From the NCBI GenBank assembly GCA_032718475.1, contig JAUCBJ010003591.1, positions 1 to 34,943 of the forward strand: a stretch of DNA of 34,943 nucleotides. The letters run 5' to 3'. The notes under the pieces were generated by a model. That model was not told where the DNA came from. It ran no database searches and saw only the letters and a program-made list of their open reading frames with translations. The translations under genes were made by a program, and so were the position numbers. This DNA is from Nemertoderma westbladi. Lineage: Eukaryota; Animalia; Xenacoelomorpha. Of the stretch, positions 5,555 through 32,578 are shown in pieces; positions within the stretch are counted from its first letter, which is position 1; each line of letters begins with the position of its first letter.

Positions 5555-8500
5555 ACGCTACGCCTACAGCTACGACTTCGCCTACACCTACGTCTACACC
5601 TACACCTACGCCTACACCTACACCTACACCTACACCTACACCTACACCTACACCTACACCTACACCTACACCTACACCTACACCTACACCTACACCTACA
5701 CCTACACCTACACCTACGCCTACACCTACGCATACGCCTACACCTACACCTACACCTACACCTACACCTACACCTACACCTACACCTCACCTACACCTAC
5801 ACCTACACCTACACCCTACACCTACACCTACACCTACACCTACCACCTACGCTACGCCTACACCTACACCTACACCTACACCCTACACCTACACCTACAC
5901 CTACACCTACACCTACACCTACACCTACACCTACACCTACACCTACACCTACACCTACACCTACACCTACACCTACACCTACACCTACACCTACACCTAC
6001 ACCTACACCTACACCTACACCTACACCTACACCTACACCTACACCTACACCTACACCTACACCTACACCTACACCTACACCTACACCTACACCTACACCT
6101 ACACCTACACCTACACCTACACCTACACCTACACCTACACCTACACCTACACCTACACCTACACCTACACCTACACCTACACCTACACCTACACCTACAC
6201 CTACACCTACACCTACACCTACACCTACACCTACACCTACACCTACACCTACACCTACACCTACACCTACACCTACACCTACACCTACACCTACACCTAC
6301 ACCTACACCTACACCTACACCTACACCTACACCTACACCTACACCTACACCTACACCTACACCTACACCTACACCTACACCTACACCTACACCTACACCT
6401 ACACCTACACCTACACCTACACCTACACCTACACCTACACCTACACCTACACCTACACCTACACCTACACCTACACCTACACCTACACCTACACCTACAC
6501 CTACACCTACACCTACACCTACACCTACACCTACACCTACACCTACACCTACACCTACACCTACACCTACACCTACACCTACACCTACACCTACACCTAC
6601 ACCTACACCTACACCTACACCTACACCTACACCTACACCTACACCTACACCTACACCTACACCTACACCTACACCTACACCTACACCTACACCTACACCT
6701 ACACCTACACCTACACCTACACCTACACCTACACCTACACCTACACCTACACCTACACCTACACCTACACCTACACCTACACCTACACCTACACCTACAC
6801 CTACACCTACACCTACACCTACACCTACACCTACACCTACACCTACACCTACTCACCTACACCTACACCTACACCTACACCTACACCTACACCTACACCT
6901 ACACCTACACCTACACATACACCTACACATACACATACACCTACACCTACACCTACACCTACACCTACACCTACACCTACACCCACACCCACACCCACAC
7001 CCACACCCACACCCACACCCACACCTACACCTACACCTACACCTACACCTACACCTACACCTACACCTACACCTACACCTACACCTACACCTACACCTAC
7101 ACCTACACCCACACCCACACCCACACCCACACCCACACCCACACCCACACCCACACCCACACCCACACCTACACCTACACCTACACCTACACCTACACTT
7201 ACTTCACCTACACCTACACCTACACCTACACCTACACCTACACCTACACCTAAACCTACACCTACACCTACACCTACACCTACACCTACACCTACACCTA
7301 CACCTACACCTACACCTACACCTACACCTACACCTACAACTACACCTACACCTACACCTACACCTACACCTACAACTACACCTACACCTACACCTACACC
7401 TACACCTACACCTACACCTACACCTACACCTACACCTACACCTACACCTACACCTACACCTACACTTACTTCACCTACACCTACACCTACACCTACACCT
7501 ACACCTAAACCTACACCTACACCTACACCTACACCTACACCTACACCTACACCTACACCTACACCTACACTTACTTCACCTACACTTACTTCACCTACAC
7601 CTACACCTACACCTACACCTACACCTACACATACACCTACACATACACCTACACATACACCTACACCTACACCTACACCTACACCTACACCCACACCCAC
7701 ACCCACACCCACACCCACACCCACACCCACACCTACACCTACACCTACACCTACACCTACACCTACACCTACACCTACACCTACACCTACACCTACACCT
7801 ACACCTACACCTACACCTACACCTACACCTACACCTACACCTACACCTACACCTACTCCTACTCCTACACCTACACCTACACCTACACCTACACCTACAC
7901 CTACACCTACACCTACACCTACACCTAAACCTACACCTAGACCTAGACCCACACCCACACCCACACCCACACCCACACCTACACCTACACCTACACCTAC
8001 ACCTACACCTACACCTACACCTACACCTACACCTACACCTACACCTACACCTACACCTACACCTACACCTACACCTACACCTACACCTACTCCTACTCCT
8101 ACACCTACACCTACACCTACACCTACACCTACACCTACACCTACACCTACACCTACACCTACACCTACACCTACACCTACACCTAAACCTACACCTAGAC
8201 CTAGACCTACACCTACACCTACACCTACACCTACACCTACACCTACACCTACACCTACACTTACTTCACCTACACCTACACCTACACCTACACCTACACC
8301 TACACCTACACCTACACCTACACCTACACCTACACCTACACCTACACCTACACCTACACCTACACCTACACCTACACCTACACCTACACCTACACCTACA
8401 CATACACCTACACCTACACCTACACCTACACCTACACCTACACCTACACCTACACCTACACCTACACCTACACCTACACCTACACCTACACCTACACCTA

Positions 8501-8697
8501 CACCTACACCTACACCTACACCTACACCTACACCTACACCTACACCTACACCTACATCTACACCTACACCTACACCTACACCTACACCTACACCTACACC
8601 TACACCTACACCTACACCTACACCTACACCTACACCTACACCTACACCTACACCTACACCTACACCTACACCTACACCTAGGCCTACGCCTACGCCT
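5555..8697. repeat. Hexamer microsatellite array 1, mainly (CCTACA)n
   Basis: ~3.1 kb of acacct with variants (acgcct, acaccc, acacat, aaacct, agacct, actcct, cacttacttcacc). Confidence 0.99.
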
Positions 8698-8876
8698 AAG
8701 GAAGTACTAAAGTTGCTAGGTGCTAAAGGTACTAAAGGAAGTACTAAAGAACGTACAAAAGGAAGTTTAGTACATATAAAAATAAAAGGAAATTTGGTAC
8801 ATAAGGAAGTTGGGTACATGAGGAAGTTTGGTACATAAGGAAGTTTGGTACATAAGGAAGTTTGGTACAAAAGGAA
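8698..8876. repeat. Satellite spacer copy 1, left part (18-bp aggaagtttggtacata subrepeats); continues at 20661-20728 after the LTR element
   Basis: Near-identical to 21962-22190; rejoining across the AGGAA TSD restores the sequence seen in copy 2. Confidence 0.92.
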
Positions 8877-10487
8877 TGTTGCCGTTATCCCAACACCAGG
8901 GGGGAAAAACGCCGATGCTGGAGACGTGACTTTACAGACCACTGAGCCCCGGCCAGTCACCGGATATTGATTTTGGAGAAGGAATGATTTCTGAGATGCA
9001 GGGTTGCGGTTGAGAAAAAGCTGCATTAGTTGGATATACTCTTTAATGTAACTGAACTCTGTTGAACCTTGTCAACAATATTGAACCCTGATTAAGAATA
9101 ATTTTGGGCTTCCCCAAATCAATATACACCAAATATTCACAATAATTATACACGATAATATAAATCCCTACGGTATATTATTTAATTACCCACTGTTCGC
9201 TCAGAATTTTAGCCTACCTAATGTTCCCCAGATTTTCCCTCGGTCCCAGTCTTAGTGCCGTAGTGTCGGTGTCGGTCGACCCTGTCGCGTGTCCGTTCCA
9301 CCCCTCACGAACCCCGAAGGGAACGATCATCGAGAACCAGCACGGCTTGGCTAAGGATCGGTCCAGTCGGTAGACTCTGTCGCGTATCCGTACCACCCCT
9401 CTCGAACCCCGAAGGGTTCGGTCATCGAGAACCAGTACGGCTTGGCTAGGAGTCTGTCGTGTCGGTGGACCCGTTCGCGTGTCCGTTCCACCCCTCACGA
9501 ACCCCGAAGGGTTCGATCATCGAGAACCAGAACGGCTTGGCTAAGGGTCCGTCAGTTCATCACAGAAACCCAACCACCTAGGCTTTCCGAGTCCGTTTCA
9601 GGCTCGTAGTCGCTTCGGCAGCCGAGAAACTGCTCCGAACAGTCGGTAGGCCAGTAGAGTCTAGTCGAGTCTAGTCCTTTGTCTTTCGACCCCATCGCGT
9701 GTCCGTTCCACCCCTCACGAACCCCGAAGGGAACGATCATCGAGAACCAGTACGGCTTGGCTAAGGGGTCTGTCGTCGGTTCCCGTCGCAAATCCCAGTA
9801 CAAGCAGTCAGCGTTCCGAGTTCTTTTCAGTCTCGTAGTAGCTGCCGTTGACCAGAGACCGCTAAGGGCAGTTCTCGTCAAACCCGTCCTGTGGCCAGCC
9901 CTTTCGCATGTCCTGTCCCACCCCTCACGAACCCCGAAGGGATCGGTCATCGAGAACCAGTACGGCTTAGGTCAGGGGGCAGTCGTTAGTTGGCCACCCG
10001 TTCGCGTGTCCGCTCCACCCCTCACGAACCCCAAAGGGAACGATCATCGAGAACCAGAACGGCTTGGCTACTAAGGGGCCGTCGGTGCCCGTCGCAAATC
10101 CCTGACACAAGCAGTCAGCGGTCCGAGTTCTTTTCAGTCTCGTAATGGCTGCTGTTGGCCAGGGACTAAGCGGTCAGTCCTTGTCCTTTAGGCCTGGCGC
10201 ATTACCAAATCCACCCCTACAGGCAGCAGGAAGTTGGCCAGGGCCTAATAGTACTCAGGCTAACCTGAATACTGCTTGCATTTTCCATCCCCCCCTGGCC
10301 CTTATAACTATGAAATTATTCCCGTACCCTGTAAGTTGCCCCAAAGTTCGCCCATAAATCGCCCCCAGTTTATTGAATGTGCCCAAAACCCATGGTCCCG
10401 CACCCAGTAGTAATATCGGAATAATCAATTTTAAATAAATACAAAAATATTCAACTCGCGTTATGGAAAGTTGAAATACCGCGAACA
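8877..10487 (-). repeat. 3' LTR (1611 bp)
   Basis: Matches 19050-20660 with roughly a dozen differences counted by eye; minus strand begins TGTTCGCGG and ends CGGCAACA. Confidence 0.96.
9278..10082 (-). ncRNA. Array of six ~70-95-nt structured repeats in the LTR (K-turn + C(UUCG)G hairpin); same array at ~19451-20254
   Basis: Conserved cores start at ~9285, 9380, 9475, 9695, 9904 and 10002; compensatory changes in outer and middle stems. The repeat is certain; its RNA function is inferred. Confidence 0.6.
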
Positions 10488-10496
10488 GTCCCCCCC
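10488..10496 (-). other. Polypurine tract
   Basis: Minus strand GGGGGGGAC immediately precedes the TGTT start of the 3' LTR. Confidence 0.8.
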
Positions 10497-10652
10497 AATG
10501 ACCTTCGTGAAGTCTGTCGGTCGATTGAGTTTGCGTAGGTCATTCCCAATATAAAAAACCCAAATTTAATATTGCATAGTTTTTAATTAATTTGGCCTAG
10601 AGTTTGTATAAAAATAAATGTTCGATAAATGTTCCTGGAATATCCCGATCCA

Positions 10653-13253
10653 CTATTTCTTTCTCTGATACGCCTTTCGTCTCTTCGCCCGTCGACTCTC
10701 ATCGATCGCTATGGCTGGTAGAGGAGCGTCAACATCCATCGTGAGTAACGCTTCGGCTTGTCTCCTGGCGGCTCTTCCTTTCGAAGGCATCGGGATCATG
10801 TCGGTTCGTCTCTCCAACTCAGATTTGCGTGCCTCTAGGAACCATTCTCCATCACCGAACTCCTCTTTATACGAGTATAATCGTCTAATGACTTCAAATG
10901 GACCGAATAATCCGGCGCTCAGTAGCAGATCCACGTAATGGAAGGGTAGCGTGGCCGACGTGTGGAGGCGTTCCGGGAAGGAGAAATATCCGCACGCCAT
11001 CTCCTGCGCGATATTCCGAGCGTTTCTCCGAACCTTGGTCTTTAAATGGCTGTTTGCGTATGTTTCAAACATGACCATATTGCCCATAGCGGTAACGTCT
11101 TTGGTTGGACATTTGATATAGCAGCGGGGGCTAGAGGAATGTCCACGGAAACCGCACGTGGTGCAGAGGTTATAAAGGATCGGGCAGACGGAAACGTCGT
11201 GGCCCGATGTCGCGCAGTATGGGCAATAGAGTATCCCGAGGAGCTGGAGGCAAGAATCGGTAACCCGATTCCTTCTGCCGCGTGGGCACTGCTCCGAGCC
11301 GCAGTCGCCGCATACCTCCAACTGCATCTCTCGACCGGGGAATATCGGAATCGGGACGCCGACGTAGTATTCGAGTCGTCGGTCGCTCTTCGGAATATTC
11401 TCGGTGGTCGGTAGCCCGCGGAATGCTAGGCTTTTGCGTAATAGGTTCTCGCTCCGATAACCTTCTTTGTGTCCCGCTGGTCTCAACTCGGATGACCGTT
11501 TCTGGCGGTGGATCCATTCAGTTTGCTCGGCGTACCAACGGGTTAGTCGCATAGGGTCCTGAGGAACGGCGGGTGTAGTAGCCACCGCTGGTCGGCGAAG
11601 AGGTGCCGGAGTTTTAGACGGAGGGATACCAAGGAGATCGTCGGGGGTCGGCGCATCGCTGGGGCCCTCCTCGACCAGTATCGCTGAGCGGGTCCGTTGA
11701 TGGCTGGTACTCGGAATCTCCGACGACCAATCTTCGCCACCCGGGAAAGGATACGGGGATAACCGTTGGCATATGTCGCCGAAGTCGCTCAATGCAGCTG
11801 TAGTAGCTACCTCCCTCGCGGGGCTACCGGAGCCGCGTGGGGTGTAAATGCCTGCTCTCTTCATCGGTTCGGCCGAGGCAACCCGTTTGGCGGCCGGTCC
11901 ATACGCGGCCTCCGGCTCGAGTTGTCGCTTCGGGGTGGAGAGTAGAACACCCTCGTTTAGCCATATCTCTTCTCCTTCCGAAGAGATCAGAGGCTCCTCC
12001 GCACCGAGAAGTTCGGTAATCGTAGGGATGTCGTAAGGTCCGCTCTCGTCCCAGGAATCGATAACGGAGGGCGTTTTCGATTCTCCCGGTGTAATGTTCT
12101 CGACCGCTTTAAACGCGTGGTTTATAACCTCATTCCAGTCGTAGTCGACGAAGGAAAGGGGGACCGCCGTAATAAGGTTATCGAGAGTTCTACAGATAAA
12201 CTTAGCGACGGTGTAGCACTCCATAACAATGTAAACGTAGTTCCGTCGATCGGGATTCTCCCACCTTTGGTGTATCGTCCATTTCCGATCAACGTCCTTC
12301 CATCGACCCTCTCGCTCGCTCTTTATTTCTAATCCCGGGTATCCACCGTATATTTTATTATAGTCCCGGAATTTCTGGGGTTTGAAGTCGATACCGCCGT
12401 TGAGCACAGCGAGGTAGCCGATCCCGGATTTCGTCGGTCTCACCTCTTGGAATCCTCGCATGAACTCGGCGAATCGTAACCAGGCTAGTAGCGTTTGAGT
12501 GTCGATGCAATGGCTAAGGGCGTTGAGGTCGTCTCGTCGGTTTCTTCCTGCAGGAGCGTTCGCGTAGTCGTTCCGGACGTCCGCCTTGATATCCGACCCG
12601 ATTTTAATGACGTCGAAGTCGAAGAGGATCTTTTGGATTTCCGGAGGCAGCAACCAGATCGCTCCGGCTGCCTGCACTTCCTGTCTGGGTGTCGGGAATA
12701 TTCGGCACACCAGTACCAAACCGTCCAGGGTTCCGAGGACGACGACTAAGGATCGACTGTATTCTTTCGCCCCGTACTTTTCCTGGTAGTCGTCTCGGTT
12801 CTGGATAATCGATATGCGTTCCTCGGGAAGCGTCGCCGTACATTCCGACAGGTTTCCCCAGTGGGTGAGGTACGTACTCTTGTCGTCGACGAAACTTTGA
12901 CATCTCTCCAACGTAATCGCTTTCGAGGTGGGCGTCGCGTTTCCCTCGTTGTCGTAGATCAAACATCGGGATATGTAGACGCTCTGCCGGAACGTTTCCC
13001 AAAACGACGAATCGTCCCCTCCGGTTGCCTTTGCGTTCCGAGTTCTTTTCAGTCTCGTACTAGCATCAGCTAACCGGAGGGCTCGTAGATTCTTAGAATC
13101 CGGTCCCTCTCGCCCGGTGAATTTAATGACTCGCACGTTCTCATTTAGCAGGGTGCTCCAATTTGTATCAAAGTCAGGGGATCCGGGTTGCGAATATTCC
13201 AGTAGATCTATCGTGTTACGTAATTCGCCGATAATTTGGCGATTTGGGTCCAT
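10653..13253 (-). CDS. 866-aa accessory protein: DEDDy-like (WRN/EXD2/RNase D-type) 3'-5' exonuclease domain, low-complexity linker, CCHC-like zinc knuckles
   Basis: ExoI-like IYDNEG; ExoII-like ILFDFDVIKIGSDIKAD; CIDTQ; SGIGYLA; ExoIII-like YVYIVME; C-terminal CGDC, CPYCATSGHDVSVC, CTTCGFRGHSSSPRC; intact ORF. Confidence 0.75.
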   Translation of the reverse strand: MDPNRQIIGELRNTIDLLEYSQPGSPDFDTNWSTLLNENVRVIKFTGREGPDSKNLRALRLADASTRLKRTRNAKATGGDDSSFWETFRQSVYISRCLIYDNEGNATPTSKAITLERCQSFVDDKSTYLTHWGNLSECTATLPEERISIIQNRDDYQEKYGAKEYSRSLVVVLGTLDGLVLVCRIFPTPRQEVQAAGAIWLLPPEIQKILFDFDVIKIGSDIKADVRNDYANAPAGRNRRDDLNALSHCIDTQTLLAWLRFAEFMRGFQEVRPTKSGIGYLAVLNGGIDFKPQKFRDYNKIYGGYPGLEIKSEREGRWKDVDRKWTIHQRWENPDRRNYVYIVMECYTVAKFICRTLDNLITAVPLSFVDYDWNEVINHAFKAVENITPGESKTPSVIDSWDESGPYDIPTITELLGAEEPLISSEGEEIWLNEGVLLSTPKRQLEPEAAYGPAAKRVASAEPMKRAGIYTPRGSGSPAREVATTAALSDFGDICQRLSPYPFPGGEDWSSEIPSTSHQRTRSAILVEEGPSDAPTPDDLLGIPPSKTPAPLRRPAVATTPAVPQDPMRLTRWYAEQTEWIHRQKRSSELRPAGHKEGYRSENLLRKSLAFRGLPTTENIPKSDRRLEYYVGVPIPIFPGREMQLEVCGDCGSEQCPRGRRNRVTDSCLQLLGILYCPYCATSGHDVSVCPILYNLCTTCGFRGHSSSPRCYIKCPTKDVTAMGNMVMFETYANSHLKTKVRRNARNIAQEMACGYFSFPERLHTSATLPFHYVDLLLSAGLFGPFEVIRRLYSYKEEFGDGEWFLEARKSELERRTDMIPMPSKGRAARRQAEALLTMDVDAPLPAIAIDESRRAKRRKAYQRKK

Positions 13254-13719
13254 ATTTACGATTATATCCGTTACAAATTAGATCGGTTAATTATAAGTCC
13301 AGAAAGTCTGAAACTATAGCGATAGCAGAATAATTCAGTTTTTTATTTAATTCAGTTTATTAATAACATTGCTATATAGGCATCTATCATCTTATTGCTA
13401 ATACATTCAGCATTTACAGTTACTATAGCTATACATTAATATCCAACCAGTTTTTTATGACTTTTTTGTCCTTTTCTTTTTTCTAATTCTTTTCTTTAGA
13501 CTTTTTTATACCTTTTTTTTTGTCTTTTTTCATTTCATTATTATTTCATCTCATTTCATTTATTTCCACATATATTTTAACATTTAGTTCCACCATTTAT
13601 TTCACATTTATTTATTTATTTCCACATCATCATTGGGTTTATAGCCCCCCGGCTATCATCATTGTTATAAGCGCAGCACCAGGGTGCGCATCATTACATT
13701 TTCATCAGCATACGCGTCA

Positions 13720-16700
13720 TCATTCAGGTTTACTTTTACCGAGTTGTTTTGGGCTGGCGCCTTGGCTTGATAAGTCCGCTGGGTTTTCCTTCCCGTTCAC
13801 GTGATGCCACTGTTCTCGGCCGGTACACTGTTTAATCTCCGTGGCTCGGTTTGCAACAAACGTGGTGTGACGCCGTGATGGAGAGTGGAGATAATAGAGA
13901 ACTATACTCGAATCTACCCAGAAGTGTTGAGATTCTATGGGGATCCGTAGATTCCGCATGACCATGCGATTCTGTCTTACTGCCCAAACTGCAGCTTGTA
14001 GCTCGAGTCTCGGGATCGTTGCTACGAATTCCCCGGATACTGTCTTTGCTTTGGAGAATAAGAAGCTTGTATCGCCGTTTCCATCGTTACTTAGTCTCCG
14101 TAGGAAGGTGACTACGCCGATTCCGGTATTCGAAGCATCCGAAAAGGTGTGGAGCTGGAAGATATCGGTGGGCAATTTATCGAGGAAGAACGGTCTAGGT
14201 ATCCGCATAAGATGTAGGTGTTCGAGCTGCTCCGTCCATTTTCTCCATTTGACGCTGAGGTATGGGGGGAGCTCTTCGTCCCATCCCAGTCCTTCTATCC
14301 ACATTTCCTTAATCAGGTTCATTCCGGCCAAGGTTACTGGGGATATGAAATTTAGTGGGTCGAAGATGGCGCTTTTTATCGACAAACATCCCCTTTTTGT
14401 CATAGGCTTGGGTAGGGGTTTATACTTGAAGATGAATTCGTCTGATTCTATGTCCCATTCAATCCCAAGTACACGATGTTCCACATCCTCCGAATACATT
14501 TTGTTATTTTCCAGCCGGATGTCCTCCGGAAACTTTTCCATAAGTGTTTTGTCGTGGGATCTGAACTTCACGAGCGGAAACCCTCCTTTCTTTAGACATT
14601 CTACCATCCCCATTGCTAGCCGATATGCCTCATCCACATTATCCGCGCCGGCGCATCCGTCGTCCACATAGAAGCATCGTCGAATGGTTTCTATGACGGT
14701 TGGAGGGAACTCGTTTTCGCACATAGTTGCTGTCCTCTTTAGCATGTCACTGCATGCTACCGGCGAGTCCTTAGCGCCGAAGATCCTGACGACCATACGC
14801 ATTACGTCTACGTCCTTTATCGTGAGTTGGCTAATCTCCTGTTGAGTAAGCGTTTTATCCATCCATAGGATACGTAGACAGTCCGAGTCTCTTGGTAACG
14901 TACGAACTTGATGAAACATGGCCTTGATGTCACAGGTGAATGCTACCCGGTTTTCCCTGAACCTGATCAATACGCCAATGAGTGTGCTATATATGTTGGG
15001 TCCCGTGTAAAGTTGACTGTTTAGGGATTCGCCCTGGTACATAGCGGCAGCATCATTTACCACTCGGATTTTCCCACCTTTGCGGGCTTCTACTACATAG
15101 TGGGTTGGGAGATAATATGTTCTTTCACCACCTTGCAGTTCATTCCGTGGTACCATTTCTGCTAATCCATCATCGAGATATCCTTGGATTACGGTATTAT
15201 ATTTCTCCTTTATTTCGGGTTGGTCATTCAGCCGGCGTAGAATCCCTTTAAGTCGCCTAAGTGCCATGCTGGCGTTGTTTGCCATTGGTTTGTTTGGATC
15301 CTTCCATAACATAGGTGAACACCAATGTCCGTCTTTAAACGTGGCCTGGTCGAGAACGTCCATACAATATTGGTCCTCTTCGGATGGGTTTTCGTCCTTT
15401 TCCGCGAACTCCTGGGTCTCCAAATTAAAATATTTCGTCATCTCTCGTTGGGTTTTCTCGGTTTCCAGAAACAAATCCTCGTCCAGATCTGAAGCTGAGC
15501 AATAACCCACAGAGGTTACATTCTCTTTAATCTGACATTTAGGAAGGTAGGTATAGGTATCCGTAGTTTCCTCCTTAATGCCGCAGAGTGTCCATCCCAT
15601 TATTGTTCGTTCAGCATAAAATCCATCATCCTGGTTTATAGATCGAGCGATATCTCCGGTGGGGATGTGTAGTTCCGGTGTATCAAGTCCAATCAGTAGG
15701 GTGATACGGTTCACGTCCAACTGCGGACACCTCAGGTCTACATCGTCTCGGTCTAATTGTATGAGGGGGGCATACTCGGCTGATTGTCGGAACCGCACCC
15801 GGAGGTCTGTGTGTACCAAGGCGTTCTTGATGGTTAACTTAGCCGTTTCGTAGCCCTTCATCACTCCTTCCATCTGGAGTTGTACCTCCCCGGACTCTAC
15901 CTCTCTGTTATCGGTGATGGTTTGTATGGGCCGTTTACAAGGTTCATATTCTAGGCCGAGTTGCTCGAGGAAATCCCGGTCGATGATGGTTCCGTCAGAC
16001 CCGTTATCGAGGAACGCGAGTGTCGTCAGAGATTTGCCGACTCCTTGGATCCTTGCTGGGATTACCTTTGCGAAAACCATGTAGCGGCGATTTATAAGAT
16101 TAATCGTGGCCGAAATATTGGTTACTTGTGGTGTATCGGTGGAGATCTTAAACGGGTTGGTTTCTCTCCGTTGGGTTGTCCGGGTTCCTTTGAAGATGTG
16201 GTTTGTTTCTCCTCTTCGCCTGGCTTCGATCCGAAAGGGGAGGGTAGTAAAATCGAAGTTCGCGGGGATGTGGAGGAGCGTGTGATGGCGTTGGTCGTTA
16301 CAGACAGCACAGCATGATCTTTGGTCGCACTCCCGAACATAGTGACCTGTTCCAAGACACCGGAAGCATCCTCGGTATTTCATTATCGCCTCGAAGCGTG
16401 AGACGAGTTCGGCGAACTGAAACTTTCTGCAGAATTCCACTTTATGTTTCTCCCCACAGAAGAGACAGAGCAGGGAATTTGTGATGCCTTCCCTTTCGGG
16501 TGCCCAACTCGCGAGATAACATGCCCATTCCTCGGCGGATGTCGGTTCCTCGTAGTCTTCGTCGTCGGAATCCTCGGCCATGGTGATGGCCATCGTACTC
16601 ACCGGTGGGGGGCGGAATCTCGGTTTCGGAGGGGTTATCTTACTCCTGGAGTTGCTTTCTATTCCGTCCAACTTTGCAAGACTTTGTTTTGAAAACATCG

Positions 16701-17331
16701 AGTCATTCATGGCTTCGGAGATATCGTCCAGGAATGCCGACATTTCAAGGAAGCTAGGATCTCGATCTGGATGTCTGCGCCGGAGATCTACACATTTATA
16801 AGCCCACTTACTTTGTAGCCATCCGGTGAACTTCCGGGCGATCTGTCGGAGGTTTAGAATGTTGTTCACCTGGTCTTCCTTATTTAAGGGTTTCAGAGTA
16901 TAGTAGGTATCCTTCATAGAGTCGGAGAATTCCTGTATGTTCTGTGGGTCCCCTAGTGATCCCGCGTCCTGTATCAGTCTCTCTAGAGTTTTATTAATTA
17001 TAGTTCCGGTATTTCCGTATCTTTTATCTAGAGTTTTCCATGCGTCATAGTATGCCTCATGAGAACCTCCTTCAAAACATGCAATAATTCTGCGTGGTTT
17101 GTCACCCAGGTATTGCGATAAATATACCAATTTCTGTGCGTCGGCTATGTCTGTTGATCCGATCTGCGCAAAGAACCGTTTCTTGAATCTGAGGTAATCG
17201 ACGGGATCTCCTTCGAAGGTGCGAATCTCCATCTTAGGCATGGCAAGGCGGTTCTCCAACGCCCGGATGATGCTGACGTCGTCTGAACTAGAGTGACTCG
17301 GAGGGTTATAGTTATTGGCACTCACTCCCAT
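13720..17331 (-). CDS. Bel/Pao Gag(core)-protease-RT-RNase H polyprotein, ending before integrase
   Basis: DUF1759-like PKMEIRTFEGDPVDYLRF; triple knuckle CLFCGEKH..C / CFRCLGTGH..C / CAVCNDQRHHTLLH; protease FLDNGSD; RT KIRVVNDAA, CDIKAMFHQV, FGAKDSP, YVDD; RNase H FSDAS, TIPRLELQAA, VDSSIVL, ENPADL. Confidence 0.96.
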   Translation of the reverse strand: MGVSANNYNPPSHSSSDDVSIIRALENRLAMPKMEIRTFEGDPVDYLRFKKRFFAQIGSTDIADAQKLVYLSQYLGDKPRRIIACFEGGSHEAYYDAWKTLDKRYGNTGTIINKTLERLIQDAGSLGDPQNIQEFSDSMKDTYYTLKPLNKEDQVNNILNLRQIARKFTGWLQSKWAYKCVDLRRRHPDRDPSFLEMSAFLDDISEAMNDSMFSKQSLAKLDGIESNSRSKITPPKPRFRPPPVSTMAITMAEDSDDEDYEEPTSAEEWACYLASWAPEREGITNSLLCLFCGEKHKVEFCRKFQFAELVSRFEAIMKYRGCFRCLGTGHYVRECDQRSCCAVCNDQRHHTLLHIPANFDFTTLPFRIEARRRGETNHIFKGTRTTQRRETNPFKISTDTPQVTNISATINLINRRYMVFAKVIPARIQGVGKSLTTLAFLDNGSDGTIIDRDFLEQLGLEYEPCKRPIQTITDNREVESGEVQLQMEGVMKGYETAKLTIKNALVHTDLRVRFRQSAEYAPLIQLDRDDVDLRCPQLDVNRITLLIGLDTPELHIPTGDIARSINQDDGFYAERTIMGWTLCGIKEETTDTYTYLPKCQIKENVTSVGYCSASDLDEDLFLETEKTQREMTKYFNLETQEFAEKDENPSEEDQYCMDVLDQATFKDGHWCSPMLWKDPNKPMANNASMALRRLKGILRRLNDQPEIKEKYNTVIQGYLDDGLAEMVPRNELQGGERTYYLPTHYVVEARKGGKIRVVNDAAAMYQGESLNSQLYTGPNIYSTLIGVLIRFRENRVAFTCDIKAMFHQVRTLPRDSDCLRILWMDKTLTQQEISQLTIKDVDVMRMVVRIFGAKDSPVACSDMLKRTATMCENEFPPTVIETIRRCFYVDDGCAGADNVDEAYRLAMGMVECLKKGGFPLVKFRSHDKTLMEKFPEDIRLENNKMYSEDVEHRVLGIEWDIESDEFIFKYKPLPKPMTKRGCLSIKSAIFDPLNFISPVTLAGMNLIKEMWIEGLGWDEELPPYLSVKWRKWTEQLEHLHLMRIPRPFFLDKLPTDIFQLHTFSDASNTGIGVVTFLRRLSNDGNGDTSFLFSKAKTVSGEFVATIPRLELQAAVWAVRQNRMVMRNLRIPIESQHFWVDSSIVLYYLHSPSRRHTTFVANRATEIKQCTGREQWHHVNGKENPADLSSQGASPKQLGKSKPE

Positions 17332-18611
17332 ACTTGATGGATCAATAATAGGTGGAGTTTTAATAATGACGCGGTACGAGTTTGTGGTGTGGATGTAAAT
17401 GGGTTGTTAGATCGGGGAGTGGCGTCCCGTTCCGAGTCCCTTTCAGGCTCGTACTTGGGTACACTCGCTGTCGTGGTGTTGGATGGGAAATAAGGTTCCT
17501 CATTCTTTAGCGTAGCCGGTGGGGGATGGAACACCGGTGCTTGTGCCGATAACGTAGACTGTTTGGTAGGCGGGATCTCGGGTTTCGGAAGTTTCGCCGC
17601 TGTTGGTGTAAATGACTTCTCTAATTCCGGTACCGGGATTGGCTCATATTCCTGATCTATATCCCTTTCCCAGTCCTCGTATAGTTGAATATCTCGTTCT
17701 ATAAGCGCGGCTTCGTATTCCGCAAGTTTCGCAATATCTGCATTCTTTTTGTGAGTGAGAATCGCTTGGGCCTCGGCGTGTTGTTTACACATTTCTGCTT
17801 CCCATTTACGTTGTTCGATCTCTTGTTTGGCCTCTCGTTCACGTTGTTCGATCTCTCGTTTGGCCTCTTGTTCACGTTGTTCGATCTCTCGTTTGGCCTC
17901 TTGTTCACGTTGTTCGATCTCCTGTCTGACCTCCTGTCTGCGTCGTTCGACCTCTTGTTCGGCCTCTCGCTTTTGTGTTTCGGCGGCTAATACATCTTGC
18001 TCGGTTTGCAGTTGAATATACTCATCTTCCATCCGAGCTTTGAGGGCTAATGCCTTCCGTTCTCGCAGTTGGTCTCGGAGTGGCTGACCCCCTTGAGAGC
18101 TATGCGCTGAGCCGGATCTCTCGCTCCTAGCGCTGGAGTGCTGATTTCTAGCGGACCCCGTTCTTTTTCGATGTACTGCCGTCCTGATGCTGGAGGATCG
18201 TACTGATTCCGCGTCTGTTCTTTCAGCCCTCTTGTAGTACTGTTCCTCATAGCCTCTCACAAGGCTGAGGGTCCTCCGGTGTTGTTTGCGGAACCCATCT
18301 AGATGTACAACGTGTTCTTCCAACTTGGGGTAGTTTTCCTGATCGGTGGAGGGAACGAGATCTTGGTACGCCTGTATCATTCTTTCGTACCGCTGTAGGA
18401 TATTTCGGATACTTTGAAGCTGAGTTTGTACCTCATTGAGGGGGGTTTTGACTCCCTTGAGTTGTTTCTCCATCCGTTGAAACGCTCGGGTTACTCCGCC
18501 TTTGAGAGCCCCTAGCCGACGGGTCATGTTCTTGACGTTTGGTACCTCGTCGGCTTCCGAGTCTGTGTGGTGATCCATCTCGTCGGTATCGGATACGTTA
18601 TTTGTCGTCAT
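17322..18611 (-). CDS. Gag N-terminal coiled-coil region (429 aa), out of frame with the downstream gag-pol
   Basis: Position, charged helical composition and EIEQREQEAKR repeats; the downstream (-1) frame is open from ~17408, so the frames overlap. Confidence 0.8.
   Translation of the reverse strand: MTTNNVSDTDEMDHHTDSEADEVPNVKNMTRRLGALKGGVTRAFQRMEKQLKGVKTPLNEVQTQLQSIRNILQRYERMIQAYQDLVPSTDQENYPKLEEHVVHLDGFRKQHRRTLSLVRGYEEQYYKRAERTDAESVRSSSIRTAVHRKRTGSARNQHSSARSERSGSAHSSQGGQPLRDQLRERKALALKARMEDEYIQLQTEQDVLAAETQKREAEQEVERRRQEVRQEIEQREQEAKREIEQREQEAKREIEQREREAKQEIEQRKWEAEMCKQHAEAQAILTHKKNADIAKLAEYEAALIERDIQLYEDWERDIDQEYEPIPVPELEKSFTPTAAKLPKPEIPPTKQSTLSAQAPVFHPPPATLKNEEPYFPSNTTTASVPKYEPERDSERDATPRSNNPFTSTPQTRTASLLKLHLLLIHQVWE
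17806..17970. repeat. 33-bp coding tandem repeat in gag
   Basis: ttcacgttgttcgatctctcgtttggcctcttg repeated ~4-5 times. Confidence 0.9.
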
Positions 18612-18799
18612 TGTAACGCCTCGTCGATAGCTAGATACGCGATGTCATAAAACAGTTCCTCGTAGGTATTGTACTCAGCTTGGACCACCCGAACGGTAAT
18701 CCTGAATCGTCCGACGTTCGTTCCTTGTACTTCAACTTCGACGTGCCAGATTCCTGGCTCAACTTGGATTATATCAATGGGTGTGATCGATACTTCCAT
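18608..18799 (-). CDS. Small 63-aa upstream ORF whose stop overlaps the gag start (ATGA)
   Basis: ATG start, protein-like composition, TGA at 18610-18608 overlapping ATG at 18611-18609. Confidence 0.4.
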   Translation of the reverse strand: MEVSITPIDIIQVEPGIWHVEVEVQGTNVGRFRITVRVVQAEYNTYEELFYDIAYLAIDEALQ

Positions 18800-19034
18800 T
18801 CCCTGTTAACAACTCTCCAAATATGTGATCTGCCGACTACGAGTTGGTTAGATCGAGTTTGTTGATTAATTAAACCATGACTTTGTCTCAACTCAAATAC
18901 CAGAGTTTCCTCGTAGTGGGTGCTGGCAAGCACGTAGAGAGTTTTGAAGAGTATTGAAGGATTCTCAACTTCCACCAGTTGAAGTTGACCGTAATTATTC
19001 TTAATTTTGACACCCTGTCAAAATTAACCGCATG

Positions 19035-19047
19035 AATTATTCTTAAT
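19035..19047 (-). other. Candidate primer-binding site (self-priming type), ATTAAGAATAATT
   Basis: Lies 2 nt inside the 5' LTR end; no TGG tRNA-type PBS; exact complement lies in the LTR at 19264-19276. Confidence 0.55.
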
Positions 19048-19049
19048 TT

Positions 19050-20660
19050 TGTTGCCGTTATCCCAACACCAGGGGGGAAAAACGCCGATGCTGGAGACGT
19101 GACTTTACAGACCACTGAGCCCCGGCCAGTCACCGGATATTGATTTTGGAGAAGGAATGATTTCTGAGATGCAGGGTTGCGGTTGAGAAAAAGCTGCATT
19201 AGTTGGATATACTCTTTAATGTAACTGAACTCTGTTGAACCTTGTCAACAATATTGAACCCTGATTAAGAATAATTTTGGGCTTCCCCAAATCAATATAC
19301 ACCAAATATTCACAATAATTATACACGATAATATAAATCCCTACGGTATATTATTTAATTACCCACTGTTCGCTCAGAATTTTAGCCTACCTAATGTTCC
19401 CCAGATTTTCCCTCGGTCCCAGTCTTAGTGCCGTAGTGCCGGTGTCGGTCGACCCTGTCGCGTGTCCGTTCCACCCCTCACGAACCCCGAAGGGAACGAT
19501 CATCGAGAACCAGCACGGCTTGGCTAAGGGTCGGTCCAGTCGGTAGACTCTGTCGCGTATCCGTACCACCCCTCTCGAACCCCGAAGGGTTCGGTCATCG
19601 AGAACCAGTACGGCTTGGCTAGGAGTCTGTCGTGTCGGTGGACCCATTCGCGTGTCCGTTCCACCCCTCACGAACCCCGAAGGGTTCGATCATCGAGAAC
19701 CAGAACGGCTTGGCTAAGGGTCCGTCAGTTCATCACAGAAACCCAACCACCTAGGCTTTCCGAGTCCATTTCAGGCTCGTAGTCGCTTCGGCAGCCGAGA
19801 AACTGCTCCGAACAGTCGGTAGGCCAGTAGAGTCTAGTCGAGTCTAGTCCTTTGTCTTTCGACCCCATCGCGTGTCCGTTCCACCCCTCACGAACCCCGA
19901 AGGGAACGATCATCGAGAACCAGTACGGCTTGGCTAAGGGGTCTGTCGTCGGTTCCCGTCGCAAATCCCAATACAAGCAGTCAGCGTTCCGAGTTCTTTT
20001 CAGTCTCGTAGTAGCTGCCGTTGACCAGAGACCGCTAAGGGCAGTTCTCGTCAAACCCGTCCTGTGGCCAGCCCTTTCGCATGTCCGTCCCACCCCTCAC
20101 GAACCCCGAAGGGATCGGTCATCGAGAACCAGTACGGCTTAGGTCAGGGGGCAGTCGTTAGTTGGCCACCCGTTCGCGTGTCCGCTCCACCCCTCACGAA
20201 CCCCGAAGGGAACGATCATCGAGAACCAGAACGGCTTGGCTACTAAGGGGCCGTCAGTGCCCGTCGCAAATCCCTGACACAAGTAGTCAGCGGTCCGAGT
20301 TCTTTTCAGTCTCGTATTGGCTGCTGTTGGCCAGGGACTGCTAAGGGCAGTCCTTGTCCTTTAGGCCTGGCGCATTACCAAATCCACCCCTACAGGCAGC
20401 AGGAAGTTGGCCAGGGCCTAATAGTACTCAGGCTAACCTGAATACTGCTTGCATTTTCCATCCCCCCCTGGCCCTTATAACTATGAAATTATTCCCGTAC
20501 CCTGTAAGTTGCCCCAAAGTTCGCCCATAAATCGCCCCCAGTTTATTGAATGTGCCCAAAACCCATGGTCCCGCACCCAGTAGTAATATCGGAATAATCA
20601 ATTTTAAATAAATACAAAAATATTCAACTCGCGTTATGGAAAGTTGAAATACCGCGAACA
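19050..20660 (-). repeat. 5' LTR (1611 bp)
   Basis: Direct repeat of 8877-10487; followed by AGGAA TSD. Confidence 0.96.
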
Positions 20661-20728
20661 AGGAAGTTTGGTACATATAAAAATTAAAGGAAATTTGGTA
20701 CAAAATGGAGTTTAGTACATATAAAAAT

Positions 20729-21961
<1,233 letters not shown>

Positions 21962-22209
21962 AAGGAAGTACTAAAGTTGCTAGGTGCTAAAGGTACTAAA
22001 GGAAGTACTAAAGAACGTACAAAAGGAAGTTTAGTACATATAAAAATAAAAGGAAATTTGGTACATAAGGAAGTTGGGTACATGAGGAAGTTTGGTACAT
22101 AAGGAATTTTGGTACATAAGGAAGTTTGGTACATGAGGAAGTTTGGTACATAAGGAAGTTTGGTACATAAGGAAGTTTGGTACAAAAGGAAGTTTGGTAC
22201 ATATAAAAA
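21962..22209. repeat. Satellite spacer copy 2, left part; continues at 25805-25858 after the LINE
   Basis: Same as 8698-8876 with extra 18-bp units; right part matches 20676-20728. Confidence 0.92.
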
Positions 22210-25200
22210 GAGGAGTAATACCAGATTTCAGTGGTGAACATCAGTATGATTTTCCATACCCGAAGTGCACATACGATGTTAGTGGAAATTGGTCTTCTCC
22301 AATATACTACTCACCGCACTCTGGTCAAAGTCAGAATATAGGAGACAGGGACTTCAGATCATATAAAAGAAGTCCCTACCCCATCCATCCACAAAGACAG
22401 CAGCGCTTTTAAATCGTCAAATCCTTCAAACACACCACCTCCAGTTTTCAACAATGATGAAACCAACAAGAGAAACTGTATGGGACTAAAACTGTTAACG
22501 TTAAATTGTGAAGGCTACATCAGGAATAAAAATTATGTGGTAGAGCTACTAGACAACATACAGCCTGATATAGTATGTCTCCAAGAGCATTGGCTTGGTC
22601 CAAGACAGGCTGAGGTCTGTCTAATGCGTAATAAAGTACACTTGGCATACTCCTGTGCAGCTCTGACAGTTTCAGATGGAATGCTCACACCCAAACCCCG
22701 GGTAAGAGGCGAGGGGGGAACTGTGTTATTGGTTAAAAATGAACTAGTACCATTCTGCGCCTCACTGACAACAAACTCTGACAGAGTGTGTGGGATAACC
22801 ATTAGATCACTATATGATCAGAGCTTAGCAATAATTAACACTTATATGCCAGCCAATTGTAATAGAGAAAACGATACGCATGACTATTTGCGAGAGACCA
22901 ACAACCTCAATGTCCTGATCACCGAGTGTATTAATTCTAATCTAACACCCATTATAATGGGTGATATAAATGGAACTATTCAACGTGATAACACCATACA
23001 ACCTAGAGGAGCCTCGCACTACTCTGCTTTTGGCAAGATGTTTTATGACAACATAATCGAGCCTAATGAATTCATTGCTGCAGATATGACAACAAAATCG
23101 TCTGGAATGCTGTTTACGTATTCAGCCAAGTATAATGGGGTTGACCACGCGAGATCTAGCTATATAGATCATATATTTATCCCTCAACAGTGGTTTGATT
23201 ATCTAATAAAATCTACAGTTGGTGAACCTGATAATAATAATGTTTCGAAACATCTACCAGTGTATGCAGTTCTCCAACTAGTAAAGGCAGAGAACACCGT
23301 ACCACTTAACTTCCGTAAGAAAAAACAAGATAACATTAGATGGAACTTCAAAAAGGCCACAACTGAAAATTTGGCAACCTACAAAGAAAACATAGAAAGT
23401 AATCTTACTAAACCAACATTAACCGAAACATCTGTTGATGGCAGAGCCAAGCATCTTATTAGAACCATATCGAATGCGGCACGTTCCTTTATTCCAATGT
23501 CGTATGTAAAATACCGGCCATACTCAAACAACGAATCATACGAGGACCATGTACAAGCTCTAGTAAACTCAAACCGAAATAACTCCAAATCTTTTTGGCG
23601 AAAAATAAAAACAAAAAAGCATCATGTTTTCACTGATAAGCAACTAATACAGGTTCATCAACGTGTGACTGATCAATTTAAATGTGATCAGTCCGATCAA
23701 GGTAGTAAAAAACAGGAGAATATTGTCATAGACCAGTCTGAAGCAGCCACGGTAAAACTTAAGATGGAAACCGTTATAGACAAAATGATAGAGCAATCTG
23801 ATGCAGATAATTAGGTACCGTGACCGTGAAACCAAAAGAAATCTCCCAACTAATTAACAAACTTAATCGCGGCAAATCAAATGACTTCTACCAACTCAAT
23901 ACAGAAAGCCTAGTATACGGACGCTCACCAGGATTATGTAGCTACATTGCAGATCTTTTTACAGATATCCAAAACAGTGGCACCTGTCCTGAAATTTTCT
24001 CCGTTAGTACCATATCTCCCATTCCAAAAGGACGAAGAGTCGGTACAATCCCACGAGACGTTAATTTTCTATTCATTTCCATTGCTCTAAGCATAGCAAA
24101 ACTCTGGGAACTGTCTCTGCTGGAAGAACTCTCTAAACTACCAACGAATAACTTGCAACTTGGTTATAAAGCGGGTTCAGGGTCTGACATCGCACACCAG
24201 GTTGTCAACAGTATTATTAACAAATTTACTAAGAAAAGATAGCACATGTATGCAATGTGTGTGGATTTAACATCGGCGTTTGATACGGTCTGTCACAGTA
24301 AGTTATTTGCTAAACTAAGGAGGACTGACGTCCAACCTCGAGTTATTGATGCCCTGGAATCCTTTTACAAGAACTCAACTTCCCACATCGCTGCAAATGG
24401 GCACTTCATCCACAAACCAATACAAATACAAAGAGGTGTGCGTCAAGGTGGCATCCTATCACCCATATTATTTAACTTCTATCTAACCGAACTCATACAT
24501 GACTTGGAAACAAGTGGTTTGGGTGCACATATAGGAGAGCAATCATTTTGTGTCGTCAATTACGCAGATGATATTATAATTTTGTCAACCCTGAAGACTG
24601 ACTTAGCAAAACTTCTAAAAACCTCATCTGATTACTTCAAGAATCACAACTTAGAGCTTAACATTGTAAAATGTCATTACCTGTCAATCGATGTTAAAGG
24701 GAATCCATCAATAGATGACACCATCATGCTGGAGGGAAATATATTGCGCGCAGTGAAATCATGTAAATATATGGGTATACCAATTCCAGCTGGCTGTAAA
24801 TCAATCTACAACTTCAACAATAGCAAAATCTGGAGTAATATGTCTCAAATGGAGCGGTCAGGACTTACATTAACCGACGTCCCACTGAGTATAGTATCTC
24901 GTATATGGAAAGCCATCTGCATACCGACCGAGTATAGCTTATGGCTCCTCAAGTCTCACCTCTGAAGGGATAAACAGTCTAGGCAAAGGTATGCGTAGCG
25001 TAAGGCGATGCGCAAAGTGATACACTTAAATAACCGTGTCTCCAATAACGTACTATATTCATTGTTCGATATTAATATAGATGCGTGTCTGCGGCTACAG
25101 CAGTTCAATTTTATATTCAGATTGTTTAACACAGGCAATCCGAAACTAAACTGGTTGTTTGGAAATATTTTGTGTGACCACTGTACGGGAAACAGAGTTG

Positions 25201-25804
25201 ATATTTTCTCATCATATCAGATATCATCGTTTTTGTACAACCTACCATCTTTGCTATCAATTGCAATATCTTCCTATTCCACCAAACTTTGTTCTAGAAC
25301 TGTGTATAACGCTACAAAACAGTGTATGTCAAATAGAGACGTTTTTATATCTATTTATATACAAGCGCTATTAAATAATTTTTCCTATGATGCGTGCTAT
25401 AGCCTGTCGGTTATTAAGGACTATTTAAAACTATTTTACATATAATATAATATAACTTTATTATAACGTGAGTTAAAATATTTTTAATACCCATATTTTA
25501 AGGATATATTATCGGTTATTAAGGACTATTTAGAATACTATTTTACATATAATAATAACTAATTTACTTACTCCTACAAAATATTTTTAATACACACTAT
25601 TTTTCGGAGATATAATATATTTTTAATACATAATTATCTTTTTACTAAGGGGCAGCTCTTAACCCCAAATTTATGCTAAATAAATGATAAAGTTATTGAT
25701 GGTTGTTATTCTGTATATTGTTATAGTTAATGTGAGTTAATTATTCAAATATTGATTAAATATAGCGCCGGGGCCATCCCGGATTTTCAAAAAAAAAAAA
25801 ATAA
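22210..25804 (+). mobile_element. 5'-truncated, degenerate non-LTR retrotransposon (APE-type LINE; clade not determined)
   Basis: EN + RT coding remnants, AT-rich 3' UTR, poly(A) at 25789-25801, candidate TSD ATAAAAA (22203-22209 / 25805-25811). Confidence 0.92.
22480..25445 (+). pseudogene. LINE ORF2 (APE endonuclease + reverse transcriptase), disrupted
   Basis: EN: LTLNCEG, CLQEHWL, NTYMP, MGDING, YIDHI, SKHLPV. RT: DLTSAFDTV, GVRQGGILSPILF, YADD. Frameshift near 23815; in-frame stops at 24240 and 24963. Confidence 0.92.
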
Positions 25805-25858
25805 ATAAAAATTAAAGGAAATTTGGTACAAAATGGAGTTTAGTACATATAAAAATAC

Positions 25859-26134
<276 letters not shown>

Positions 26135-28358: not shown

Positions 28359-28509
28359 CCGCTCCAAGGGAAATCATGCAATGTTTCCCTCCACTTGTAG
28401 AAGAGTATAAGGCGATGTATACAAAACAAAATAAATCGCTTTCAAAATAATCTAAATAACTATAATAACTCTACTAATTACAAATATTGCTATAGATATT
28501 GCATAATGA

Positions 28510-28655
28510 ATTGCATACAAATTAAATTTACAAAATATTATCTCTTCCGAAGTTAACGATTATTACATACAAATTAAAATTACAAAATACTGTTTCTCAT
28601 TCGTTCTACATAATGATTACTACATACAAATTAAATTTACAAAATATTATCTTTC
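28510..28655. repeat. Three ~55-bp AT-rich tandem repeats
   Basis: catacaaattaaa(t/a)ttacaaaata recurs at ~28514, 28566 and 28623. Confidence 0.8.
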
Positions 28656-29047
28656 AATATATAAAAATTTGCTAGGGCAGGTGAAAGGAGTAAGCCAAAC
28701 CCGCAGGTTTGTCTCCCCAATCACCTCCTTCGCCTCTCTCATAACATAAATTCAAATAGGTACGACTAGTGTATATGAGTCCAGTCGGATATTTACGAAA
28801 ATGCTACAATATACATCAGAGCGACGATGATGTATATATCTAGAGTCTGTCGCCCCGTGATATGAATGCATTACCGACCCGCTCCTGGGTTCTTTGGGCT
28901 CGCTCCTCTCTTTCGCCCCCTTCCCAGATACACCAAACGTCCTCCAATCGATTCTGTTGACATTGTCCGCGAGGCGTCACTCCCCGGAACCGGCGACGAT
29001 GTTCCCTGAGCCCCGACGGATTCCCGGCTCGTGCTTCTCCCTCGGCC

Positions 29048-32000: not shown

Positions 32001-32578
32001 TTGTTCATTGGGTAACCTCCCTCGTTGTATCTAAGGAATTGGTGAGCTTGACATCGCGTTAATATTGGTTCAGGATGTTGCTTGTCCAATCGGTCGGGAA
32101 TCGCCATGTCTTTTTTGTTCATGCATTCACCACATTTATAGAACAACTTGTATACACTGAAGACCTTCGGAGTCTCTTGATCCTCACCTCGAGTCCTCCG
32201 GTACAGATGCATTCCGTCGAACTGATCTCGGACTGCAGGTAGAGGTTCGTCGTGTCGTAAATACATGTTCATATGGTACAGCCACGCAATCTCCTCGTCC
32301 TGATCTGCACTAATGTCACATACGTCTAACGCAAAATCGTAGGGATACCGAGTGCGATACTCCTTCCGCAAAACTTCCATATGGTCCCCCAACACTCTCA
32401 TTCTTTCCCTCCTTAATTCCTTATCATACGCGGGTTTATACTTTCCATTTAGCTCCATTACCGACCTTCCATGGTAGTAGACATTCGAATCTTTACATCC
32501 CAGTCGGGCAAATGGTAGTTCCGCCTCCTCTCTAGCAGTAAATCCTCTCCGCGGTTGCGCTCTAATTTCCTTCTCCAT
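29048..32578 (-). CDS. Second exonuclease/zinc-knuckle gene (homolog of 10653-13253), split by one in-frame TAG at 30349-30347
   Basis: ORFs 30347..32611 and 29048..30331 are in the same frame. Motifs: FYDNEG, ILNQDYVKVGSGVQSD, FVDTK, TGMGFIA, YYLVLE, CKLCGSTRHNQKSC, CRWCSETDHSFHTC, CGYCGINGHRSARC. First ATG at 32578. Confidence 0.75.

Follow-up and report, generated by a model that had tools for sequence, protein, structure and literature searches.

The DNA analysed here is a window of 34,943 bases from Nemertoderma westbladi, to which all coordinates below refer. It harbors, on the minus strand, a Bel/Pao LTR retrotransposon, which is recognized as such by its paired LTRs with TG...CA ends, a target-site duplication and Pao-type domains. 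The 3' LTR occupies positions 8877-10487 (1611 bases) and the 5' LTR positions 19050-20660; the two are 99.0% identical over 1614 columns, with 16 alignment columns that differ. The element was inserted within a 17-base repeat and is flanked by a five-base target-site duplication (8872-8876 on the plus strand, second copy at 20661-20665), while a polypurine-tract-like G-run (10488-10498, minus strand) lies just before the 3' LTR. An ORF of 440 amino acids in the position of gag (17322-18644, minus strand) yielded no match in a Pfam search. It overlaps, in a different frame, the Bel/Pao ORF of 1228 amino acids (13720-17406, minus strand), which encodes DUF1759 (E 3e-14), a zinc knuckle, a protease and Peptidase_A17 (E 5e-38) and whose reverse transcriptase/RNase H part finds its best relatives among Bel/Pao polyproteins, with up to 42% identity. 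An integrase following RNase H was not found: all eight full-length relatives stop matching at 13741-13759, and no further match to them occurs elsewhere in the window. Without integrase this copy is non-autonomous, and the hairpin array that it carries in its LTRs may therefore be under relaxed selection. Downstream follows ORF3 (10653-13277, minus strand, 874 amino acids) with a predicted 3'-5' exonuclease-like domain and Cys/His knuckles. When the LTR was compared with one sequencing run, 4198 records aligned, with many variants; this abundance fits a multi-copy family, the depth giving no copy number. The stretch is partly present in six of nine sequencing runs, with no RNA run listed among the six, and four runs from three studies contain at least half of the sampled words. 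The window also contains a frizzled fragment, the mark of an animal host, that is at most 40% identical to those of named animals, and a tRNA gene search of the window found none.

The primer-binding position (19035-19047, minus strand) is located two bases inside the end of the 5' LTR, does not start with TGG and is predicted to serve as a self-priming site. It is complementary to 13 bases within the LTR (19264-19276, minus strand; 9091-9103 in the left LTR), which would mark the 5' end of the RNA. In a control, one of 1792 random 20-mers reached 13 complementary bases, and that one may be the duplicate at 18994-19009. TATA-like words are found at 9126-9162, that is 23-59 bases upstream of the presumptive RNA start, and ATTAAA is present at 9047. 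In the passages available to us on Tf1 and Tj1, self-priming likewise involves a primer-binding position that can pair with sequence within the LTR; the mechanism is implicated there from fungi to vertebrates, Bel/Pao not being named in that passage (PMC4600332). The present case differs in that 13 bases are involved, that the element belongs to Bel/Pao and that RNA start and cleavage are predicted. If the RNA starts near 19276, as is likely, this lies downstream of the array, and the array is consequently placed in U3 and thus in the untranslated 3' part of the genomic RNA, a position that we infer from the 13-base self-priming match. Some transcripts could end before the array, as an AATAAA is located at 10374, upstream of it in the 3' LTR.

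The initial annotation had described six structured units on the minus strand of the 3' LTR, spanning 9278-10082. They are indeed present, at 9277-10077, and six more reside in the other LTR; the span covers all six of these units, which we term type A, but not the whole array, as a unit of a second type reaches about 10180. An anchor motif for type A had 13 matches, 12 of which are the LTR copies, the remaining one being an unrelated site in pol. On the minus strand, unit 1 extends over 9994-10077 and has an imperfect outer stem, unit 2 over 9896-9980 with one base more than in the right LTR, inserted at 9914, unit 3 over 9687-9770, unit 4 over 9467-9550 (z = -2.9), unit 5 over 9372-9455 (z = -2.7) and unit 6 over 9277-9360. 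All four outer stems quoted for the array were recovered. When every 5' flank was combined with every 3' flank and the energies were summed, the order in which each flank meets its own partner had the lowest energy of all permutations (rank 1 of 720) in each LTR, the flank windows having been chosen after inspection; in the pairing matrix of the left LTR, the own partner is the best one in only three of six rows. Compared with unit 4, unit 5 carries compensatory changes, two of them in the outer stem and one in the middle stem. Between the right-LTR units, mean identity amounts to 93% in the 68-base core as compared with 70% in the 14+14 flanking bases, and 11 of the 68 core columns vary in that LTR. 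The units are related, being recent duplicates, and thus do not represent independent sequences.

With regard to individual positions, the proposed covariation of the middle stem stands for one compensatory swap, but the variable position is a Watson-Crick pair in only three of the six units and a purine mismatch in the other three. A UUCG loop is present in all six units of the right LTR but only in five of six in the left LTR, where a C-to-U change at 10033 alters unit 1. The G.A pairs are invariant in all units as had been claimed, an observation of low information since 57 of the 68 core columns are invariant, and variation within the predicted kink-turn (K-turn) core is confined to the 3b/3n positions, with U:U in four units, C:U in unit 2 and C:A in unit 5. 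Folding z-scores of -2.5 or below were obtained for only 4 of 12 type A copies, the other eight ranging between -1.2 and +1.4, and minimum free energy (MFE) folds of the whole array failed to resolve all units as individual hairpins. The minus strand had the lower MFE in 10 of 12 type A windows and was tied with the plus strand in two; many G.U pairs work only on the minus strand. Selected RNA structure in the U3 of a Bel/Pao LTR, the central proposal of the initial annotation, is supported by the own-partner outer stems, the LTR anatomy and the self-priming match.

A second type of hairpin had been overlooked. Read along the RNA, the three units of this type B and the six type A units follow one another as B A A B A B A A A, and the same 6+3 array recurs in the 5' LTR at about 19447-20352. 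Type B unit 1 (10085-10180, core 10122-10144; z = -4.3), unit 2 (9778-9870, core 9815-9837) and unit 3 (9555-9640, core 9586-9608), all on the minus strand, are built from a long lower stem, a 5x4 internal loop with an invariant A, UA and GA, which we take to be loop-E-like, a 4-bp stem and a C-UGAAA-N-G cap. A basal UUAGC/GCGA loop is common to most type A units and two type B units, among them unit 2; unit 3 has a different lower stem. The 23-base core occurs twice more in the 8562-base interior of the element, as compared with an expectation of 1e-8: once in the gag ORF (17431-17453, minus strand, phase 0), where the lower stem is weak (z = -0.3), and once in ORF3 (hairpin 13001-13092, core 13037-13059, minus strand, phase 2; z = -3.6), where a full lower stem is present that is unrelated to those of the other copies. 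Occurrence in two ORFs in different phases, together with the unrelated stem of the ORF3 copy, argues for a constraint on the nucleic acid rather than on the protein. Here, too, own partners pair best (rank 1 of 120), in a permutation test that comprised five of the eight copies, the three LTR duplicates having been left out, and that included the gag copy with its weak stem. A z-score of -2.5 was missed by four of the eight copies. The type B core alone exhibited no significant covariation: one of seven pairs changes on both sides, which was reached by 62 of 500 shuffles. A search with a type B model returned the eight known copies and no other match above 10 bits. The number of units is variable, as one contig of 886 bases skips 9317-10033 (717 bases) and retains one B and one hybrid A, a weak hint that B plus A is the minimal set.

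Every type A unit combines the features of a K-turn, namely C:G at position -1, a purine-purine-U bulge, which corresponds to the preference of K-turn bulges, the G.A and A.G pairs, a non-Watson-Crick 3b:3n pair and two G-C pairs beyond. By sequence, 12 of 12 copies place a 3-base bulge and then G.A and A.G between two helices. A strict K-turn pattern, chosen after the sequence had been seen, matched these 12 copies, nothing else on either strand of the window and 2 of 9000 shuffles, while a loose pattern was matched by 34-74 of 1500 shuffles per unit. The resemblance to standard K-turns such as Kt-7 or those of U4 snRNA and box C/D RNA thus comprises the 3-base bulge and the tandem G.A/A.G (PMC5061560, a source on K-turn biology, PMC4914095 and PMC8191799, each as far as available to us), and it extends to C:G at -1, Watson-Crick 4b:4n and non-Watson-Crick 3b:3n. 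According to the portions of these papers that we could use, C:G at -1 is common, C at 3b folds well and a Watson-Crick 3b:3n pair folds poorly (PMC8191799), and three natural K-turns with a U-U pair are listed (PMC4914095). Type A deviates from standard K-turns in that two of the four pairs of the C helix are G.U and that a slipped register competes, and from known K-turns in the lack of a box C heptamer within the units and in the presence of six copies in a retroelement LTR. The slipped, non-kinked canonical register is better by 3.6-5.1 kcal/mol in six of six units according to the Turner nearest-neighbor model, which contains no K-turn terms. The designation as a box C/D-type K-turn applies to no more than the U:U pair of four out of six units, a box C heptamer being absent from all of them. 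No covariation within the units of the window separates the two registers. One variant contig (depth 2.2) would leave four pairs intact in the K-turn register and have a C.A mismatch in the slipped one, the bases concerned preceding the bulge; it was read by eye, with the partner strand assumed to be unchanged and with two differences in the piece undisplayed, and a joint in a second sequencing run shows seven of the same letters. If the partner strand is unchanged, this contig hints at the K-turn register. All in all, the type A kink-turn is a good sequence match, the kinked fold itself being predicted.

Neither module could be assigned to a known RNA family. Rfam returned four weak matches (E 0.94-4.3) in 8800-20800, none of them in the array, and two (E 4 and 6.4) in 9200-10300. 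A box C/D RNA was rejected: scanning with the box C motif found a single match in the LTR, located in a linker and in none of the units, and Rfam had nothing at a useful E. A SECIS reading was set aside on the assumption that the short upper helix and the lack of an apical AA disqualify it. Exact patterns of the type A core were absent from viral contigs and occurred 16 times in prokaryote genomes, always in long open frames and with a best model score of 14.6 bits as compared with 97-112 for real units, so that they are probably due to chance; the type B core pattern had no match in either data set. Neither motif occurred in the ten metagenome loci that have Bel/Pao relatives at 32-39% identity, with no blastn match and none for the type B model, and no pol relatives were found in viral contigs. 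The best metagenome match of the type A model (20.6 bits, E 3e-4) was discarded, being located antisense in an ORF, without a K-turn, in five near-identical loci. Covariance models, a check that had been suggested for the array, could be built and searched, but homologues of A or B outside the family emerged neither from viral nor from prokaryote sequences nor from the ten metagenome loci, and the covariation therefore rests on few sequences. The initial annotation knew of no description of such an array in Bel/Pao LTRs, and our literature search, the coverage of which excluded most subscription papers, also found no description of a K-turn or hairpin array in an LTR.

ORF3 deserves attention as a possible reader of these structures. 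It had no Pfam match, and a full search yielded ten weak relatives, a word-index search none. A profile of these relatives matches EXD2 (E 7e-4) and CCHC proteins, and in the Atlas ORF3 falls into 3'-5' exonuclease clusters (score 0.91; 154 of 256 features shared). Structure prediction gave a model of low quality (pLDDT 39), with EXD2 as the best Foldseek row (E 0.33) and no Foldseek match at E <= 0.001, and a single-sequence search of the PDB gave no match. The first exonuclease-motif acids of the relatives P0023 and P0027 are not aligned in ORF3, in an alignment with only 19-25% identity. ORF3 may be an exonuclease-fold, zinc-knuckle protein that is likely to be catalytically degenerate. DEDDy exonuclease ORF3s are also found in the LTR elements Juno and Vesta of bdelloid rotifers, and in the passages at hand inactive DEDD RNA-binding proteins are put forward as a model, 3'-end processing is suggested as a function and the role of captured exonuclease ORFs is left open (PMC5408684). 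An extra exonuclease-like ORF downstream of pol is shared with these elements (PMC5408684, in the part consulted), whereas the ORF3 studied here resides in a Bel/Pao element, is fused to several Cys/His knuckles and probably lacks catalytic residues; those passages on Juno and Vesta mention no RNA motifs, in contrast to the hairpin array described here (PMC5408684). The window contains a second element with an ORF3 paralogue (29051-32620; E 1e-10). It bears a different hairpin in four copies, one of them upstream, another downstream and the remaining two within ORFs, where their phases differ, and its own-partner stems rank 1 of 24.

The explanation that we prefer, although tentatively, is that the array is a multi-site protein-docking RNP platform, in which type A would bind a host protein of the L7Ae family through its predicted kink-turns and type B a protein encoded by the element; it is drawn by analogy with known systems. 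Among the four functions envisaged in the initial annotation (RNP scaffold, decoy, nuclease-blocking element and processed small-RNA array), it is the scaffold that appears to be favored by the second module and its copies in ORFs. Loops that are conserved in sequence while the stems vary were counted in favor of docking, and protein recognition is favored mainly because two related ORFs are each accompanied by their own dispersed hairpin. The RNA would start near 19276 and the array would be transcribed as its 3' untranslated end, which would provide six A and five B per genomic RNA. Binding of a protein such as Snu13/15.5K may convert type A from the more stable, slipped register into the kinked form, and type B might be recognized by Gag or by ORF3, a zinc-knuckle protein with a putative and probably inactive exonuclease fold. 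The complex would then license export, stabilization or packaging of the full-length RNA, as Rec and RcRE do for HERV-K, and the number of units could change via recombination or template switching between near-identical cores. The RcRE is a 433-nt structured element in the U3 of HERV-K, and the array would resemble it as a structured RNA with a predicted place in U3, at the 3' end of the genomic RNA (PMC11379458, as far as available to us). A further parallel to Rec/RcRE may lie in an accessory protein, encoded by the element, as a potential reader of the structured RNA. The array differs from the single 433-nt RcRE in being modular, with a 6+3 arrangement, two motifs, a K-turn sequence and satellite copies in ORFs, and an export role of the Rec/RcRE type is proposed by analogy. 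A more specific version, which we regard as rather unlikely, sees a Rev/Rec-like system derived from a captured exonuclease, in which a dead DEDD/zinc-knuckle ORF3 reads a family-specific hairpin dispersed over the ORFs and U3 of the element and the six tandem K-turns recruit a host snoRNP or spliceosome protein of the L7Ae family.

Less probable still is a scaffold made of RNA only, in which the type B cap, as a GAAA tetraloop or a T-loop, docks into the type A basal loop within or between RNAs, the K-turns act as hinges and the genome is compacted or dimerized. The cap is UGAAA in eight of eight copies, can be read as a GAAA tetraloop in six and fits the YGNRA T-loop consensus in all eight, and each genomic RNA would offer six A and five B. 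T-loops follow the consensus YGNRA, and those of the riboswitch type have two extruded bases in the portion of the source available to us (bioRxiv 2022.12.26.521914); the type B cap has one extruded base instead of two (bioRxiv 2022.12.26.521914), which speaks against this reading. By sequence, the type A basal loop is organized like the 11-nt GAAA receptor, with a C2-G10 pair and an A4-A5 platform invariant in six of six units, and unit 2 has the canonical left strand. Likeness to the receptor, in the portions of the papers available to us, comprises C2-G10, A4-A5, A8, G6 with a pyrimidine and a pyrimidine at position 9 (PMC10243134, PMC2275092). The canonical receptor was nevertheless rejected: its U3.A8 core pair does not occur where position 3 is C, as in five of six units, unit 2 has a C.C mismatch at 1:11, and an extra unpaired A lies above the loop. 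In the measurements seen in part by us, the double mutants 3C7C and 3C9C cost at least 4.1 kcal/mol (the detection limit) and 7C11C, the combination that would apply to unit 2, 4.09 kcal/mol, so that a loss of about 4 kcal/mol or more applies to those measured double mutants that come closest (PMC10243134).

We consider it improbable, slightly more so than docking among RNAs, that the array functions in 3'-end processing, with units that block or guide exonucleases, either of the host or ORF3 from an active copy, and thus give rise to stable RNAs of 90-100 bases or a protected 3' end, which in turn would be decoys for silencing factors or for proteins that bind K-turns. In keeping with this idea, the units are compact and self-contained, the linkers between them are short, the element has an exonuclease-like ORF and 3'-end processing is suggested for such ORFs in the passages available (PMC5408684), but type B cores inside ORFs would mean that coding RNA is cut, and ORF3 appears to lack the first-motif acidic residues of P0023 and P0027, in a poor alignment. 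To the same low degree we credit enhancer repeats that act at the level of DNA, with cores that are transcription-factor sites and hairpins that are a by-product or function in single-stranded DNA. Enhancers of LTRs reside in U3, primary-sequence conservation is seen in the cores and the stability of most units is not out of the ordinary. Lower stems that fit their own partners in three motif families, G.U pairs that work on the minus strand only and the full, unrelated stem under the ORF3 copy are left unexplained by enhancers.

A new self-cleaving ribozyme array, analogous to the hammerheads of Penelope LTRs and retrozymes, is very improbable. The units are rich in conserved non-canonical loops, and ribozymes in LTR-like repeats are known: hammerhead ribozymes of Penelope LTRs and retrozymes also are structured RNA motifs inside the terminal repeats of retroelements, as described in the portion of the source at our disposal (PMC6765202), the difference being that the present array has nine units of two kinds instead of one ribozyme per repeat and no hammerhead core. 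For scanning, the hammerhead core motif was used, which had no match on either strand of the left LTR, and Rfam had none either. Twister-sister-like ribozymes have an internal loop with G7, U9 and a C10-A11 cleavage step (PMC11620745; also PMC6154101; both available in part), whereas the type A loop strand, compared by eye, carries A7, A9 and G11. Furthermore, a cut in U3 would detach the genome from R, and type B is also found in ORFs. Equally remote is the idea that one or two hairpins arose in the LTR by chance and were multiplied in tandem by neutral processes, which would agree with cores that are 88-100% alike between units and with the varying unit number seen in the contig with the 717-base skip, but drift yields no own-partner complementarity (1/720 and 1/120) and does not explain how two ORFs at a distance of 3-7 kb come to contain the 23-base core.

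As regards the docking platform, type A units provide a cheap test of whether a retroelement recruits proteins of the L7Ae family. With lengths below 100 bases, the units lend themselves to being probed one by one. The two neighboring elements, each with an exonuclease-like ORF and its own hairpin, allow a direct test of whether each protein binds its hairpin. If confirmed, self-priming in Bel/Pao would widen the range of a mechanism described for Tf1-like elements. How RNA is marked for export and packaging in invertebrate LTR retrotransposons is poorly understood, and if the reading with a captured exonuclease were true, the array would be without precedent as a K-turn array in a retroelement, located in a self-priming Bel/Pao element.

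The primer-binding position of the Bel/Pao element (19035-19047) is complementary over 13 bases to a stretch within the LTR (19264-19276), and because of this complementarity the sequence suggests that the element uses self-priming of the kind described for Tf1. Just downstream of the primer-binding position, a 16-base duplicate (18994-19009) and an inverted repeat are also present. On one sequencing-run contig, the LTR skips 717 bases (9316-10034), and a single B unit and a single A unit of the hairpin array remain. In the coding region, the gag and pol ORFs lie in different frames and overlap at 17322-17406, which may represent either a programmed shift or a lesion. The ORF in the gag position contains 4.8 copies of a 33-base tandem repeat (17808-17967), the unit of which corresponds to 11 amino acids. 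Two metagenome contigs from a distant Bel/Pao family, L001 and L002, have ends that overlap inside the coding region (1-365 and 6976-7371 in L001, 17-695 and 7036-7715 in L002), and as sequences both look circularly permuted.

The Bel/Pao element is inserted within a 17-base repeat. Long 6-base tandem arrays adjoin 17-base repeats at 5558-8876, 20661-22203 and 25805-26133, and the blocks 7449-8876 and 20728-22140 are 85% alike. Such 6-base arrays also flank a plus-strand non-LTR retrotransposon (22342-25445), which consists of four ORF pieces with endonuclease and reverse transcriptase matches. Pieces of a divergent frizzled gene occupy 237-752 and 830-1897 on the minus strand and share at most 40% identity with named animal proteins.

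A second element comprises two consecutive minus-strand ORFs of 757 and 432 amino acids (29051-32620) that are separated by a single stop; neither pol nor an LTR pair was found within 26100-33200. Scattered within and around these ORFs are four copies of a tetraloop-capped hairpin (28696-28711, 30196-30211, 31790-31805 and 32894-32909), the lower stems of which are mutually unrelated, each pairing with its own partner. Both ORFs resemble ORF3, the third ORF of the Bel/Pao element (10653-13277, minus strand), in the exonuclease-like and knuckle regions. In Pfam, nothing above curated cut-offs was obtained for ORF3 and its weak relatives P0018-P0027, and ORF3 is a member of an unnamed family of proteins, formed with these relatives, that combine an exonuclease-like region with multiple knuckles.
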